From: a plasmid | Assembly: GCF_988242995.1 (NCBI RefSeq) | Contig: NZ_OZ547045.1 | Length of the DNA: 33,568 nt | Reading direction: 5' to 3' (one strand) | Shown: piece after piece, positions 8,650 through 25,290 of the stretch | Numbering within the stretch: position 1 is the stretch's first letter | How the letters are laid out: the number at the start of each line of letters is the position of its first letter | Made by a program: the position numbers and the translations under genes | The notes under the pieces: generated by a model | What the model was told of the DNA's origin: nothing | The model's input: the letters and a program-made list of their open reading frames with translations, nothing else | Database searches by the model: none

Positions 8650-8673
8650 TCCTTGAAATTGCAATTTCAATGA
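8650..8673. promoter_or_regulatory. Palindromic operator-like site in the divergent virB1 / hns-like promoter region
   Basis: TCCTTGAAATTGCAATTTCAATGA containing the perfect 18-bp palindrome TTGAAATTGCAATTTCAA; overlaps a plausible TTGCAA-17-TATAGT plus-strand promoter. Confidence 0.55.
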
Positions 8674-14056: not shown

Positions 14057-14370
14057 TTATCCACGTACATCCGACCCCCCTGATTACCGTACATCCGACC
14101 CCCCTTGTCGTACATCCGACCCCCTAGCTTTGTACATCCGACCCCCTAAGTCGTACATCCGACCCCCTTTTTTTGTACATCCGACCCCCTATTTTTTGTA
14201 CATTAGACCCCCTGAAAATACGTACATCAGACCCCCCCTAAACCTATAAGGTGATCTCCTGTAGGTTTCCTGTAGTTTGACCGATAGCACTTAACCTATA
14301 AATTTTGCTTCTAAGAGATCAGCCTGTATGAATGCCCTCCGATAATTTATTCAATAAAATCAGTGGATAA
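14057..14370. other. oriV: DnaA-box-like sites flanking the iterons plus an AT-rich stretch
   Basis: TTATCCACG at 14057..14065; AGTGGATAA at 14362..14370; AT-rich 14280..14400. Confidence 0.7.
14065..14240. repeat. Iteron array: 8 direct repeats of GTACATCCGACCCCC at 21-24 bp spacing (last two degenerate)
   Basis: Repeat units begin near 14065, 14089, 14110, 14132, 14153, 14175, 14198 and 14222. Confidence 0.85.
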
Positions 14371-15133: not shown

Positions 15134-15245
15134 CGCCTCAGAACCCCGTAGAGCCATTCAATCAGAAAAAAGCGGCCTCATGTACAGCTCAACCAAAATA
15201 GCCGCTTACAGAGCCATACAGCGCGTATATAACCAATATCGCCCG

Positions 15246-15690
15246 GCGGCACCGGCGCTAACGTGCCTGTAGGGGCGCTGGCCGCGCTGCGGCCATCCCC
15301 CCAACACCCGGATAAATCGCGCCCGGCCCGTCGCTACGCGCCAGCCCGCCCGCTCAACCGGGCCGTTGTGACGGGCCACTGTTCCGGCAGCGGCATCGTG
15401 TGACAGCCCGCTAAAACCGGCTTTGCAGGGAGGGGGTGGGCGCGTCTCCCGGTTTGATCCCGCAAGGCCCGGCAATTTGACCACGTCGCCCAGGTTGAGA
15501 TCGGCGCAGTTGCCTTTTATTTGTCGGCATCGGCGCTAAATTTAAGTAAATTTATCGTACTATATAATGATACTTAAAGTTGACTTTTGAGGGGGAAAAG
15601 CCTATACTTTATTTACGGTTAGCAATGGTGCTGACCGACCCGGAACCAGTGGCGGCAACCGCTCCGGGGAACTTGCGAAGGGGGCAAGAA
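15246..15690. repeat. CUP-like GC-rich repeat, copy A (5'-truncated; lacks the first ~198 bp of copies B and C)
   Basis: Near-identical to 18515..18959 and 20672..21113. Confidence 0.85.
15580..15636 (+). promoter_or_regulatory. Cassette promoter P1 (TTGACT-17-TATACT) with leader hairpin GGTTAGCAATGGTGCTGACC
   Basis: -35 at 15580..15585, -10 at 15603..15608, inverted repeat at 15617..15636. Confidence 0.7.
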
Positions 15691-18316: not shown

Positions 18317-18959
18317 CACTTATGGCGTTCCCTGCGGGGCGGGCTTTCGTGCTGCGCATCGAGCCAGGCAAGCTGTCTCGCCCCTTCGGGCTTCAATCCC
18401 TAACGCCTCCGGGCTGTCGCCCTCCGCGCTCCGCTTGACCCCCACGCCCTGCGCCGGACTTGCCCCGCCTACGGCGGCCCCGCCCCTCCGGGGTGGCTTC
18501 GCCATCCTCTGCCAGCGGCACCGGCGCTAACGTGCCTGTAGGGGCGCTGGCCGCGCTGCGGCCATCCCCCCAACACCCGGATAAATCGCGCCCGGCCCGT
18601 CGCTACGCGCCAGCCCGCCCGCTCAACCGGGCCGTTGTGACGGGCCACTGTTCCGGCAGCGGCATCGTGTGACAGCCCGCTAAAACCGGCTTTGCAGGGA
18701 GGGGGTGGGCGCGTCTCCCGGTTTGATCCCGCAAGGCCCGGCAATTTGACCACGTCGCCCAGGTTGAGATCGGCGCAGTTGCCTTTTATTTGTCGGCATC
18801 GGCGCTAAATTTAAGTAAATTTATCGTACTATATAATGATACTTAAAGTTGACTTTTGAGGGGGAAAAGCCTATACTTTATTTATCGGTTAGCAATGGTG
18901 CTGACCGACCCGGAACCAGCGGCGGCAACCGCTCCGGGCAATCTGCGAAGGTGGGAATT
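18317..18959. repeat. CUP-like repeat, full copy B (GC-rich body ~530 bp plus promoter/leader)
   Basis: Near-identical to 20474..21113. Confidence 0.9.
18849..18906 (+). promoter_or_regulatory. Cassette promoter P3 (TTGACT-17-TATACT) with leader hairpin
   Basis: -35 at 18849..18854, -10 at 18872..18877, inverted repeat at 18887..18906. Confidence 0.7.
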
Positions 18960-19845: not shown

Positions 19846-20005
19846 GCTTACTTATGGCGTTCCCTGCGGGCCGGGCTTTCGTGCTGCGCATCGAGCCAGG
19901 CAAGCTGTCTCGCCCCTTCGGGCTTCAATCCCTAACGCCTCCGGGCTTTCGCCCTCCGCGCTCCGCTTGGCCTCCGGGCTTTCGCCCTCCGCGCTTTGCT
20001 TGGCC
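19846..20005. repeat. CUP-like repeat fragment D (left arm only) with an internal 33-bp tandem duplication
   Basis: Matches the left ~125 bp of copies B and C; CCTCCGGGCTTTCGCCCTCCGCGCT(C/T)(C/T)GCTTGG duplicated at 19939..19971 and 19972..20004. Confidence 0.8.
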
Positions 20006-20473: not shown

Positions 20474-21113
20474 TACTTAGGGCGTTCCCTGCGGGCCGGG
20501 CTTTCGTGCTGCGCATCGAGCCAGGCAAGCTGTCTCGCCCCTTCGGGCTTCAATCCCTAACGCCTCCGGGCTTCGCCCTCCGCGCTCCGCTTGGCCCCCA
20601 CGCCCTGCGCCGGACTTGCCCCGCCTACGGCGGCCCCGCCCCTCCGGGGTGGCTTCGCCATCCTCTGCCAGCGGCACCGGCGCTAACGTGCCTGTAGGGG
20701 CGCTGGCCGCGCTGCGGCCATCCCCCCAACACCCGGATAAATCGCGCCCGGCCCGTCGCTACGCGCCAGCCCGCCCGCTCAACCGGGCCGTTGTGACGGG
20801 CCACTGTTCCGGCAGCGGCATCGTGTGACAGCCCGCTAAAACCGGCTTTGCAGGGAGGGGGGGGGCGCGTCTCCCGGTTTGATCCCGCAAGGCCCGGCAA
20901 TTTGACCACGTCGCCCAGGTTGAGATCGGCGCAATTGCCTTTTATTTGTCGGCATCGGCGCTAAATTTAAGTAAATTTACCGTACTATATAATGATACTT
21001 AAAGTTGACTTTTTAGGGGGGAAAATCTATACTTTATTTACGGTTAGCAATGGTGCTGACCGACCCGGAACCAGCGGCGGCAACCGCTCCGGGTAATCTG
21101 CGAAGGAAAATGT
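20474..21113. repeat. CUP-like repeat, full copy C
   Basis: Near-identical to copy B over about 640 bp. Confidence 0.9.
21005..21061 (+). promoter_or_regulatory. Cassette promoter P4 (TTGACT-17-TATACT) with leader hairpin
   Basis: -35 at 21005..21010, -10 at 21028..21033, inverted repeat at 21042..21061. Confidence 0.7.
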
Positions 21114-22306: not shown

Positions 22307-23074
22307 TTAGGCTGCCTGGTATTCTGCCTTTCCGCAGTGTTCGCCGCCACAGTACAGAATTAGGCCCGGTTTCCCCCAAACGTTGGTATGGCATTTCGGG
22401 CAGGTGTATTTTGTCCGGTTTGATTTATTAACCGGCGTATCCGGTGGCGGGTTTACCAGGGAAAGGGCTTGCGTGATCTCATCATCCAGCTCGCCATTGT
22501 CGCTGTAACCCTCATCATCATCGCCATCATCAACATAACCTTTGCCGTCTGCGCCGGTTGGCGTTGGTGGCGTTGGTTTGTGCGGTGGGAACCTGTCCAG
22601 CCAGCTCAGTTTAAACTCCGTGGTTAGCAACTCCTTGCAGGCTGTATCAAACGGGCCGCCGTCCTCGATGTAGTGGCTCATCGACTCACCGACGCGCTTT
22701 CCTCCGGGCTGGCCGCTGTCGGATGGTATCAGGCCGATGCGCTCCATCATCGCCGCCCACTCTTTATTGTGGTATCCACGGCGTCCCGGTTGGCCGGTGT
22801 GTTGTTGGTACTGGTGAACCATTTCATGCACAAGCGTGGAAAGTGTGTCGCGTATCGTGCGGATCGAGAAATAGACCGGATTCATGGCGATTTCATCAAC
22901 GATTTGGCCGGTTGTGCGGCCAACAAAACGGGCATTTGAGAAATAGCCAAACGTTCGTTTTTCGCGCTGAAGGGTGATTAGGCAGGGCGGCAGCGTACTA
23001 TCAAACAGCCGCTGATTGAAAAATTCGTATGCGCGTTGAAGCTCGTCGTAAGTTTCCTGGGTAGGGATGATCAT
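22307..23074 (-). CDS. SprT-like zinc metalloprotease-domain protein with C-terminal zinc ribbon
   Basis: HEMVHQY (HExxH) motif, acidic linker, CPKCH...YCGGEHCG; start taken at ATG 23074 (TGAGG RBS); ORF track extends to 23113 across the operator repeats. Confidence 0.7.
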   Translation of the reverse strand: MIIPTQETYDELQRAYEFFNQRLFDSTLPPCLITLQREKRTFGYFSNARFVGRTTGQIVDEIAMNPVYFSIRTIRDTLSTLVHEMVHQYQQHTGQPGRRGYHNKEWAAMMERIGLIPSDSGQPGGKRVGESMSHYIEDGGPFDTACKELLTTEFKLSWLDRFPPHKPTPPTPTGADGKGYVDDGDDDEGYSDNGELDDEITQALSLVNPPPDTPVNKSNRTKYTCPKCHTNVWGKPGLILYCGGEHCGKAEYQAA

Positions 23075-23095: not shown

Positions 23096-23141
23096 CTGGA
23101 TTGTGCAATCCATTTTATTGCTTATGGATTGTGCAATCCAC
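23096..23141. promoter_or_regulatory. Two copies of the palindrome GGATTGTGCAATCC in the promoter region upstream of the SprT-like gene
   Basis: Copies at 23098..23111 and 23126..23139; the same 14-mer occurs three times inside the stbA-like gene. Confidence 0.6.
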
Positions 23142-23149
23142 TTTTATTT

Positions 23150-23233
23150 TGGGCGTTCCCTGCGGGCGGGCTTTCGTGCTGCGCATCGAGCCAGGCAAGC
23201 TGTCTCGACCCTTCGGGCGTCAATCCCTAACGC
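23150..23233. repeat. Isolated 84-bp left-end module of the CUP-like repeat (copy E)
   Basis: GGGCGTTCCCTGCGGGCGGGCTTTCGTGCTGCGCATCGAGCCAGGCAAGCTGTCTCGACCCTTCGGGCGTCAATCCCTAACGC matches the first 84 bp of copies B, C and D. Confidence 0.8.
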
Positions 23234-23242
23234 AATCCAGGC

Positions 23243-23269
23243 AAAAAAAAGCGGCCCGCATGGGGCCGC
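23243..23269 (-). terminator. Rho-independent terminator of the minus-strand stb-like operon
   Basis: On the minus strand GCGGCCCcatgcGGGCCGC followed by T8. Confidence 0.7.
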
Positions 23270-23287
23270 TTCCGGTCAGGCTTTTTA

Positions 23288-23656
23288 TCAGTGCAGCAGG
23301 AACGTTATAGCCGCCGCGCCGAGCGCTCCACCAACAAAGGAACAGACAACCGTGATAATCAGTATCTGCCTGATAAGCGCTTTCGAAAACCCTGTATGCG
23401 CCCCGGCCAGACGTTCAAAAAATTGTTCGCTAACCTTCTGCTCCTTCTTCAGAGTGTTGACCAGCTCGCGCTGGCTTGCGATCACTTCTGTTTTCGCAGT
23501 CTCCGATGATTTTGCTATCGCGTCGGAGGCTTTATCCAGCCGTTCTATTGCTTCGGTAACGCTTACACTTACACTTTCCAGTTTTGAGGTGATTTCTTTA
23601 GCATCGCCTAAAAACCAGTCCATCAGGACATCTAATTTATCAGGTTGCTTTTCCAT
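23288..23656 (-). CDS. Hypothetical coiled-coil protein with C-terminal TM anchor (third gene of the stb-like operon)
   Basis: 122 aa; helical N-terminal part, hydrophobic C-terminus. Confidence 0.55.
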   Translation of the reverse strand: MEKQPDKLDVLMDWFLGDAKEITSKLESVSVSVTEAIERLDKASDAIAKSSETAKTEVIASQRELVNTLKKEQKVSEQFFERLAGAHTGFSKALIRQILIITVVCSFVGGALGAAAITFLLH

Positions 23657-23657
23657 A

Positions 23658-24368
23658 TTATTCAGCCGTTAATATTTCAAAGGTGCGATCAAGATTACGT
23701 TTAACCGGTAATGCTAATTTCATCCAGCGATAACGACGCGCAGCCGCCGCACGTTCATCGGCATCGGTGCAAGTTTTAGCTTTTGCTTTAAAGGTTTCTG
23801 GATCTTCTGCCAGCAGTTCTTCAAACGAAATTTTGTGATACGCGAGGTATTCATAAATTTCACTTTCAAAAACGGCGGCATCTTTATGAATAGAGGCTTT
23901 TTTAGAATCTTTCGCCCATTCATATACCGAAGCAATATCCTCCTGCGGAGTCGATTTAATGCGGTTAGGCAGAAGAACAATTTTAGATTTAGGAACGCCA
24001 GCGGCACTTAACGCGAGGGCGGTCTTAATACTTTCCTGCCATGCTTTATCATCCGGGGTGACAGGAATCAGATATTTATCAAATTCGTCAATTGCACCCT
24101 CATATTTTGTCATGGTAGAAAGAAACCGCTCAACGTTCGACGCGCCAATATCCACGATGGCATTATCTTCAAATACGATTTCTTCAACGAGTTGACCAAA
24201 GTTATCGCCGGTTAAGCTCATCACTTCATCAACACCCAAATCCGCAGCCGACATATTGATTGTCTCGATGGCAAAGAATTTAGCGCCAGCCATGCGAGGA
24301 TACAGCAGGTATGACGAAATAATGGTTTTGCCGACGCTGCCACTGTAATTCATTACTGCAATTTTCAT
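23658..24368 (-). CDS. stbB: ParA/StbB-like partition ATPase
   Basis: 236 aa; N-terminal deviant Walker A (KIAVMNYSGSVGKT); position as in R388/pKM101 stb operons next to oriT. Confidence 0.75.
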   Translation of the reverse strand: MKIAVMNYSGSVGKTIISSYLLYPRMAGAKFFAIETINMSAADLGVDEVMSLTGDNFGQLVEEIVFEDNAIVDIGASNVERFLSTMTKYEGAIDEFDKYLIPVTPDDKAWQESIKTALALSAAGVPKSKIVLLPNRIKSTPQEDIASVYEWAKDSKKASIHKDAAVFESEIYEYLAYHKISFEELLAEDPETFKAKAKTCTDADERAAAARRYRWMKLALPVKRNLDRTFEILTAE

Positions 24369-24380
24369 CTGTAAGCTCCT

Positions 24381-24815
24381 TTAGAAACCTTTCTTATTAC
24401 CTACGCTACCTTTGAATGAGGTTGCGACTTTCTTTGCCTCATCACCAATTTTTTTAAAATCGGTATCGGATAAAAATTCTTTGTTCCCGCCCATATCCTC
24501 AACTAATTTTTCTGGTTCTGGATTGTGCAATCCAGTTTCCACCGGTTCCGCTTTCTCCTGCTCTTTTGGATTGTGCAATCCAGTATTTACCGTACTTTCT
24601 GGATTGTGCAATCCACCTTTTTTGCGTTTCAATCTTGCCCGGTACAAGGCCATATCTAACGCTTTCACAGTCACAGAAAAGCTGTATTCACTATCAAGAA
24701 GTTGAGCAATTTCTTGCCTACTAATACCCTTGTCTAACAAACCTTCAATCTCATCAAGACGCGCTCTTACAGCCGCAGCGAGATTGCGAGGTTCCAGTAA
24801 AAGGTCTTTTTTCAT
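24381..24815 (-). CDS. stbA: StbA-like DNA-binding protein with N-terminal HTH and C-terminal GLHNP repeats
   Basis: 144 aa; first gene of the operon divergent from oriT; three in-frame GLHNP repeats encoded by palindromic 14-mers. Confidence 0.5.
   Translation of the reverse strand: MKKDLLLEPRNLAAAVRARLDEIEGLLDKGISRQEIAQLLDSEYSFSVTVKALDMALYRARLKRKKGGLHNPESTVNTGLHNPKEQEKAEPVETGLHNPEPEKLVEDMGGNKEFLSDTDFKKIGDEAKKVATSFKGSVGNKKGF
24518..24616. repeat. Three intragenic copies of the operator-like palindrome (C)TGGATTGTGCAATCCA(G)
   Basis: Copies at 24518..24535, 24566..24583 and 24599..24616; spacings 48 and 33 bp. Confidence 0.85.
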
Positions 24816-24839: not shown

Positions 24840-25290
24840 CTATATGGCAGCCTGTTTTAGCTGTCAATCGGTTTTTGTAGTATTTCAGTAGTATTCCTGT
24901 AGTAATTCAGTAGTAACGCTTGTCGATACCGCTCATTTTTGTAGTATATCTGTAGTAATGGCTATTTCAGTTTGTAGTATTTTAGTAGTAATTCAGTAGT
25001 ATCGGTGTAGAAAACTTTCATGCAAGCATGAAAGTGGTGAATGTGAACGCTTTTTGAGCGTTTTATGCGTGTGTAAGACCTGTTTCTCCCTTAAAAAAGG
25101 CGTGTTATGGTATCCCTTAATGGCTATACACCATACGCAATTACGATTTTCATCGTAAATGCTTGAAAACAAAACAAATTATTCTAATTTGTGTTTTCAT
25201 ATGTAATACACTACGTATTACATATGTGTGTCTAAGCCGCATATATGCTAGATTTAACTGTATTACATCGGTATTACATCAAGGAAACCC
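24840..25290. other. oriT region: 11-bp direct repeats, inverted repeats and a putative nic site
   Basis: About 10 copies of (T/A)GTAGTA(T/A)(T/A)nn in 24876..25010; IR ACTTTCATGCaaGCATGAAAGT (25014..25035); IR CATATGTAATACactacGTATTACATATG (25198..25226) followed by GTGTGTCT|AAGCC. Confidence 0.65.

Follow-up and report, generated by a model that had tools for sequence, protein, structure and literature searches.

A 16-bp palindrome repeated inside stbA of an IncN3 plasmid follows sprT-like genes across Proteobacteria as a putative operator

The locus described here raises a simple question: why is one palindrome written three times into the coding sequence of stbA and twice more over the promoter of an SprT-like gene lying beyond the end of the stb operon? 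The window, that is the whole stretch of 33,568 nucleotides that was analysed, is an IncN3 plasmid, matching, with 89-96% identity, the pN-Cit (IncN3) type of conjugative IncN plasmid, MOBF/MPF_T and about 34 kb in size. On its minus strand the genes run in the order stbA (24381..24815, 144 aa), stbB (23658..24368), stbC (23288..23656), a terminator (23247-23273) and the SprT-like gene, also named mpr (22307..23074, 255 aa), whose start codon is taken as the ATG at 23074, following the RefSeq annotation of relatives. On the plus strand, past the oriT region, lie a trwA-like gene and the genes for the coupling protein and the relaxase. Broad-host-range resistance plasmids (IncN, IncX3, IncU and Pseudomonas MOBF plasmids) commonly carry Mpr/SprT-like genes, whose product is described as a putative zinc metalloproteinase, its function listed as unassigned (PMC7414963, PMC7783346). 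A 16-bp operator following sprT across alpha-, beta- and gammaproteobacteria would offer a first handle on how these genes are controlled.

In the window, the sequence TGGATTGTGCAATCCA occurs in five exact copies, two over the sprT promoter and three inside stbA. A reading made from the sequence alone had described it as the 14-mer GGATTGTGCAATCC, three times in stbA and twice before the SprT-like gene, and the 14-mer is found exactly at 23098, 23126, 24520, 24568 and 24601; no further site appears in the window at up to two mismatches, where 0.19 are expected by chance, nor at up to three. That reading also gave the intragenic spacings correctly as 48 and 33 bp and proposed that each intragenic copy encodes GLHNP, which all three do, in frame on the minus strand. 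The 8-bp arms it assigned, CTGGATTG/CAATCCAG, are present only in the copy at 24519; the unit common to all window copies is the 16-mer TGGATTG-TG-CAATCCA, with 7-bp arms TGGATTG-NN-CAATCCA. We refer to the 16-bp form TG[G/T]AT[T/C]G-NN-C[A/G]AT[C/A]CA as the SprT box. The intragenic boxes, all read on the minus strand, are box 1 (24600..24615, StbA residues 68-72), box 2 (24567..24582, residues 79-83) and box 3 (24519..24534, residues 95-99), the last being nearest to stbB, 151 bp upstream of its start. The two promoter boxes, on the same strand, end 22 and 50 nt upstream of the sprT start codon. The promoter-proximal one, O1 (23097..23112), reads TGGATTGCACAATCCA in the sprT sense, and the distal one, O2 (23125..23140), lies 28 bp from it, start to start. 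Both stbB and stbC are situated between the intragenic and the promoter boxes.

Is it the DNA or the peptide that is maintained inside stbA? Every intact stbA copy in the window, in two further IncN3-type plasmids, in R46 and in an IncN2 plasmid uses the same codons, xxT GGA/GTA TTG CAC AAT CCA/ACA. The codon preceding each box may specify G, T, N, S, P or D, yet its final base is always T, the first base of the palindrome. When stbA of the window is compared with that of CP093127, nucleotide identity is 82% overall, 100% in the boxes and 80% in the remainder of the linker that carries them, and codons for the same amino acid differ at 40 of 105 positions outside the boxes and at 0 of 17 inside (Fisher p=0.0013). 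In IncN1 and IncN2 the stbA boxes read TGTATTGCACAATACA and the peptide is VLHNT, the result of a symmetric GG..CC to GT..AC change, and the same change is found in the copy before the sprT genes of these plasmids. A Pseudomonas monteilii plasmid that retains the stbABC-sprT synteny carries TGGATTGCGCAATCCA in stbA in a different reading frame, where it yields the peptide DCAIQ (the pSTW0522-72-3 type), and has further copies, two before sprT, 28 bp apart, and one 3' of sprT. In a P. aeruginosa plasmid, and likewise in four related Pseudomonas contigs, TGTATCGTACGATACA is found before sprT as well as inside stbA, where it encodes VSYDT (the pJUPA4001 type). In total, four peptides, two reading frames and three sequence variants are seen in stbA boxes; within an element the variant, be it GG..CC, GT..AC or ATCG..CGAT, is always the same in the stbA and sprT copies. 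Such joint variation of the copies of one element, together with conservation exceeding that of the neighbouring DNA, is the behaviour expected of an operator with auxiliary copies. Given the identical codons, the varying peptide and frame, and the joint change of stbA and sprT copies, these comparisons indicate that selection acts on the DNA and not on the peptide, the GLHNP repeats being a by-product of the DNA site. The sequence-only reading had anticipated as much when it took the motif for a DNA-level, binding-site-like element. Its proposal to look in relatives for conservation of palindrome versus peptide is answered in favour of the palindrome, which is kept in stbA when peptide or reading frame has changed, and the cis element it suspected of linking stb and sprT is borne out by the same variant at both places in every plasmid.

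The place of the boxes in StbA is consistent with such a by-product. In the AlphaFold2 model of StbA, residues 12-67 form a confident helical domain, the predicted DNA-binding domain, and residues 68-117, which carry the three repeats, are unstructured and of low confidence, in agreement with the C-terminal domain of R388 StbA, reported to be non-conserved and unstructured. Their location in a linker predicted to be disordered would explain why StbA tolerates box copies. Intragenic boxes are found in three divergent stbA lineages, always within the linker, and across these lineages the stbB start codon follows the last copy at a distance of 123-151 bp. Four stbABC-sprT loci have no stbA copy at all, and in pN-Cit a T-to-C substitution (L to S) has removed the middle copy; in a Raoultella plasmid with a StbA of 61% identity, all three persist at 15/16 bases. 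Being non-universal and able to decay, the intragenic copies seem, by this comparison, to be auxiliary sites that are less strongly constrained than the one at the promoter.

To which of the two genes does the box belong? Plasmid R388 has stbABC, with ardC in place of sprT, and no box, and a scan of its stbA for an equivalent found no palindrome and no recurring k-mer. The sprT plasmids without stbABC (IncX3 pEC14_35, pEC4115 and the MOBP/Trb plasmid pEC743_4) carry exactly one box each, directly upstream of sprT or its small operon. Given these two patterns we conclude from the sequences that the palindrome belongs to sprT rather than to stb, as a sprT-linked operator and not as a StbA/StbB centromere. 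A SprT alignment run against one genome per species gave 80 loci in alpha-, beta- and gammaproteobacteria. Within 700 bp upstream of sprT a perfect box, TG[G/T][A/T]T[T/C]G-NN-...CA, is present at 50 of the 80, usually at -20 to -120 (TGTATTG 24, TGGATTG 18, TGTATCG 5, TGTTTTG 2, TGGATCG 1). About 17 more have a copy with one or two mismatches at the same position, and a detectable box is missing in about 13. No gene family adjacent to sprT recurs in more than 11 of the 80 loci, and the family that does so in 11 is stbB, leaving 69 without a stbB neighbour. The seven complete box-bearing plasmids share only the T4SS core genes and sprT, and in complete plasmids perfect copies lie at sprT, inside stbA, at the stb operon end or 3' of sprT, and nowhere else. 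Full-text literature searches with the motif sequence and for SprT/mpr regulation returned nothing relevant within the texts covered.

Two box classes may also reside in one genome. Stutzerimonas stutzeri CLN100 (L017, L034) has both TGGATTG and TGTATTG, and the same two classes coexist in Burkholderia sp. TSV86 (L032, L077) and in Ca. Burkholderia verschuerenii (L019, L064); the differing classes of such paired sprT loci resemble separate specificity groups.

At sprT itself, O2 covers the expected -35 region, and the first T of O1 is the last base of TAAAAT (23112..23117, minus strand), a candidate -10 hexamer proposed from its position; the consensus promoter scan called no promoter at the window sprT. 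In close relatives the counterpart of O2 has one mismatch and a flipped centre. The P. monteilii plasmid shows the same layout, with TAAACT abutting O1 and the 28-bp spacing, and in many loci -10-like hexamers end on the first T of the box (TAAAAT, TAAACT, TAAATT, TATAAT, TAGACT); in IncN2 and IncX3, TATATT-type hexamers stand 3-5 nt upstream of it. A box directly upstream of the Shine-Dalgarno sequence with an abutting -10-like hexamer is thus a recurrent arrangement, and we infer from this placement that the box occupies the position expected of a repressor operator.

Other elements accompany the sprT boxes. A GC-rich non-coding element of about 85 nt (…GCGGGCTTTCGTGCTGCGCATCGAGCCAGGCAAGCTGTCTCGCCCCTTCGGGCTTCAATCCCT…) occurs in four copies in the window (18318-18443, 19850-19975, 20475-20600 and 23145-23230). 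The last abuts the sprT boxes and is nearly invariant, at the same position, in a Pseudomonas plasmid (L009 15850-16010); the element gave no significant single-strand fold and no Rfam match. Directly after the stbC terminator, at 23233-23239, stands an orphan half-site, CAATCCA (TGGATTG in the sprT sense). To judge by relatives, it may be a relic of another box, since a full or near-full box is found at the stb operon end in IncN1 (R46 22547) and IncN2 (pCRE1.4 6744). The Pseudomonas elements of the TGTATCG class (L060, L063, L066, L074, L079, L014) carry a second, unrelated perfect palindrome, TTCTCGC(A/G)TGCGAGAA, some 40 nt ahead of sprT, in the interval separating its start from the SprT box, which suggests a second regulator in this lineage.

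The explanation we favour, with moderate confidence, is that the SprT box is a conserved operator tied to the sprT-like (mpr) genes that conjugative plasmids and related elements carry, with Mpr as its likeliest binder and the stbA copies as auxiliary operators. A dimeric protein reading both half-sites would repress sprT by occupying the two boxes over -35 and -10/+1 of its promoter. The binder would be encoded by the element itself and would most probably be SprT/Mpr, in which case sprT is autoregulated. The three stbA copies would be the same operator, kept by selection on the DNA and tolerated in the disordered linker of StbA. As auxiliary operators they could form a loop with the sprT promoter, at a distance of 1.4 kb, or halt RNA polymerase some 150 bp ahead of stbB; either way, the expression of stbB and stbC would be coupled to the amount of box-binding protein. 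The distance between stbA and sprT is 1.4 kb in IncN3 and in the Pseudomonas plasmids and 9 kb in IncN1, so that looping cannot account in general for the boxes inside stbA. These boxes might also control an internal promoter before stbB, or recruit the binder beside the StbA-stbS/oriT region.

Which protein reads the box? SprT/Mpr is the only gene that always accompanies it; a conserved partner gene beside sprT was looked for as an alternative among the 80 loci and none was found. Its product contains the Pfam SprT-like domain (PF10263, E=6e-11) and an HExxH motif, with H83, E84 and H87 invariant. The nearest solved fold in Foldseek is the SprT domain of human Spartan (PDB 6mdx, E=4.5e-4, 25% identity), so that domain, motif and fold place it among the SprT-like/Spartan metalloproteases. 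In the AF2 model a Spartan-like protease core is followed by a disordered acidic linker and, at the C-terminus, by a zinc ribbon, the last conserved in plasmid SprT proteins as N-K-S-N-R-x-K-Y-x-C-P-x-C...W-G-K-P. Neither Pfam nor the AF2 model nor Foldseek shows a helix-turn-helix (HTH) or other recognisable sequence-specific dsDNA-binding domain in SprT/Mpr, and direct sequence-specific DNA binding by this protein would be unusual. Base 3 of the operator co-varies with SprT residue 99, which belongs to the conserved P-G-R-R-G-Y-H-N loop that follows the HExxH helix. Where the base is G the residue is Arg (22 of 22 loci), and where it is T the residue is other than Arg at 39 of 41 loci; the two exceptions are IncN1 and IncN2, to which the window is most closely related and which combine Arg-Arg with T-class boxes. 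On a neighbour-joining tree made without columns 98-100, nine joint changes account for the nine changes of the operator and the eight of the residue, the tree being poorly resolved at 60-70% identity and the number of independent switches accordingly uncertain. As sequence evidence this co-variation points to SprT as the binder, but is suggestive only. Hybrid boxes TGTATTGCACAATCCA, with one T-class and one G-class arm, are seen in Delftia (L037, L042, L048) at -46 to -73 from sprT, and in the SprT proteins of these loci residue 99 is not Arg.

Alternatively, the box may serve as the same operator for a protein other than SprT/Mpr, either an unrecognised small protein encoded by the element or a host factor conserved across Proteobacteria; we consider this possible, if rather unlikely. 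It would accommodate the lack of a canonical dsDNA-reading domain in SprT and the IncN1/IncN2 exception to the residue-99 correlation, and the core TG-AT-G..C-AT-CA is kept across very different hosts, as the site of a conserved host factor would be. A small partner protein is disfavoured by the absence of a conserved gene beside sprT, and a single host factor fits poorly with box variants that do not vary within an element but do vary among the elements of one host genome. Nor do the known sites we compared fit. The best-fitting copies to the LexA SOS box CTGT-N8-ACAG read CTGT-N10-ACAG or CTGG-N10-CCAG, with the wrong spacing; the box is found in Alphaproteobacteria too, where the LexA site differs from the gamma/beta LexA box. 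The sites that we take to be those of LexA, NrdR, Zur, DeoR, TyrR, PurR and the NifA UAS match the box in neither spacing nor core, and what we take to be sigma-54 sites and the DnaA box do not fit it either. A KorA-like protein, named as a possible binder by the sequence-only reading, can be set aside. The published operators of the ArdK/KorA family are different sequences, those of ArdK being direct repeats beside the -35 box (GTATTGACACCTATTGACA in R388 Pssb) and that of KorA an inverted repeat at the -10, and some plasmids with the box lack the gene: no TrfB-family ORF shared with the window is found in the box-bearing IncX3 plasmid, pEC4115 or pEC743_4 (blastp E<=1e-4).

A more doubtful proposal keeps Mpr as the binder and gives it a task beyond autoregulation. 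It would be a Spartan-like protease anchored to DNA in a sequence-specific manner, and the stbA boxes, with both the StbA-stbS complex and the oriT nick site only a few hundred bp away, would position it to cleave DNA-bound StbA or the relaxase, the latter when covalently attached to the transferred strand. Such cleavage could switch the plasmid between partition and transfer or establishment.

Could the palindromes act as RNA or single-stranded DNA rather than as protein-binding sites? They could fold into hairpins, with a 6-bp stem and a 4-nt loop, in the sprT 5' UTR and the stbA mRNA, where they would influence stability or translation, or on the single strand transferred in conjugation. 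Symmetric co-variation keeps base pairing as well, the Shine-Dalgarno sequence comes directly after the sprT copies in the 5' leader, and the stb side appears to be the leading region, going by a nic-like sequence near 25120-25140 and what we take to be the R388 oriT. Against this, ten of the fourteen arm positions are invariant in all lineages, though any complementary arms would pair; the stbA and sprT copies within one element are identical, the orientation of the central dinucleotide flips between copies, and the stems are short and AT-rich. Rfam covariance models run over the boxes gave no match at E<=1. A role as hairpins is, in our judgement, quite improbable.

Still less probable is the idea, put forward by the sequence-only reading, that the intragenic copies are a centromere or partition site, or autoregulatory operators, for StbA/StbB. 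The copies do lie inside stbA, beside oriT and stbS, and R388 StbA represses the promoter of ardC, which in that plasmid comes next after the stb operon. The R388 StbA system is functional; the HTH domain of its StbA binds 9-bp direct repeats (TTGCATCAT), arranged head-to-tail with 11-bp spacing upstream of stbA, and not dyads. The SprT box is an inverted repeat and lacks this arrangement; it is present without stbABC and absent from R388, and its occurrence does not follow that of stbA, nor its sequence the StbA DNA-binding domain. StbA-type direct repeats are found separately upstream of stbA, GTAGTA in the IncN3 window and TACATCA in R46 (IncN1); IncN1 and IncN3 share the palindrome core but not these repeats. 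In the window the GTAGTA array, with 11-bp spacing (24872..25001), forms two clusters upstream of the stbA promoter (-35 TTGACA at 24867, -10 TATAGT ending 24839), and by analogy it is probably the StbA-binding array, the analogue of stbDR/stbS, distinct from the palindrome. Finally, that the threefold GLHNP repeat itself is selected, for instance as a StbB- or nucleoid-interaction motif, with incidental promoter copies, is scarcely credible given no synonymous variation within the boxes, a peptide that varies among lineages and even comes from another frame, and non-coding sprT copies identical to the coding ones.

How does the SprT box, taken as a sprT operator with auxiliary copies in stbA, compare with known systems? 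In the lac system O2 lies in lacZ and O3 in the 3' end of lacI, that is, auxiliary operators lie inside coding sequence. As in lac, the SprT box would be a dyad over a promoter, with more copies in neighbouring ORFs and a DNA constraint on coding sequence. Unlike in lac, up to three tandem in-frame copies give a disordered linker its peptide repeat, stbA, as the host gene, is part of another functional module, and in IncN1 the copies are 9 kb from the regulated promoter. Like the RK2 KorB O_B, R388 ArdK and StbA sites, the box is reused at several places of a conjugative-plasmid backbone; those regulons coordinate maintenance and establishment genes, with operator and protein specificity co-evolving between lineages, as may hold for the SprT box. 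It is unrelated in sequence to the ArdK direct repeats and the stbDRs, its regulon is tiny (sprT and the stbA-internal sites), and, unlike the KorB, ArdK and StbA sites, it follows sprT across MOBF and MOBP, VirB-type and Trb-type backbones. PutA and BirA are bifunctional enzyme-repressors, and LexA and CI protease-linked repressors, which bind through RHH, HTH or wHTH domains. Mpr, if it binds the box, would likewise be an enzyme repressing its own gene by sequence-specific DNA binding, but no such domain is recognisable in it beside the Spartan-like protease core and the zinc ribbon. With the DNA-dependent metalloproteases SprT, Spartan and Wss1 it shares the core fold, HExxH and a DNA-linked family, whereas Spartan binds DNA without sequence specificity and has no known cognate operator, and plasmid sprT genes are accompanied by a conserved 16-bp dyad. 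Judged on sequence, what is new relative to these precedents is a site that tracks one accessory gene across unrelated backbones, with in-frame tandem copies that make a peptide repeat; new, too, is a sole candidate binder without a canonical DNA-reading domain.

Regardless of the binder, the stbA linker offers a clear example of a DNA binding-site-like motif dictating a peptide repeat in a disordered protein region. In R388, stbA balances partition against conjugation, and the box copies in stbA point to an undescribed regulatory or physical link between modules. Should Mpr prove to bind the box, a member of the Spartan protease family would be able to recognise a specific DNA sequence.

The window holds further repeats besides the box. 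Three long repeats, 99-100% identical (15243-15542, 18512-18811 and 20668-20967), each lead into a strong promoter-like unit, TTGACT...TATACT, and the near-palindrome GGTTAGCAATGGTGCTGACC, and stand before leading-region genes; the promoter repeats are at 15540, 16302, 18809, 20965 and 21734. These elements resemble the CUP elements of pKM101 and, by that analogy, are probably targets of a TrfB/ArdK-like repressor. An 18-bp palindrome, TTGAAATTGCAATTTCAA, lies upstream of T4SS genes at 2216-2239 and 8650-8673, one copy with two changes, and may be the operator of the KorA-like regulator of the tra region. A nic-like sequence, GCGTATGGTGT/ATAGCCATTAAGGGATACC, is found at about 25118-25140 on the minus strand, also read as GCGTATGGTGT/ATAGCC; it resembles what we take to be the R388 oriT nick region. 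A relation of the box to the nick region was also considered and rejected, the nic-like sequence containing no box. Just upstream of the trwA-like gene, GTATTACAT repeats at 25195-25285 are probably sites of a relaxosome accessory protein. Adjoining repA, six repeats with a 21-23-bp period, ending in GTACATCCGAC (14077-14208), are likely replication iterons.
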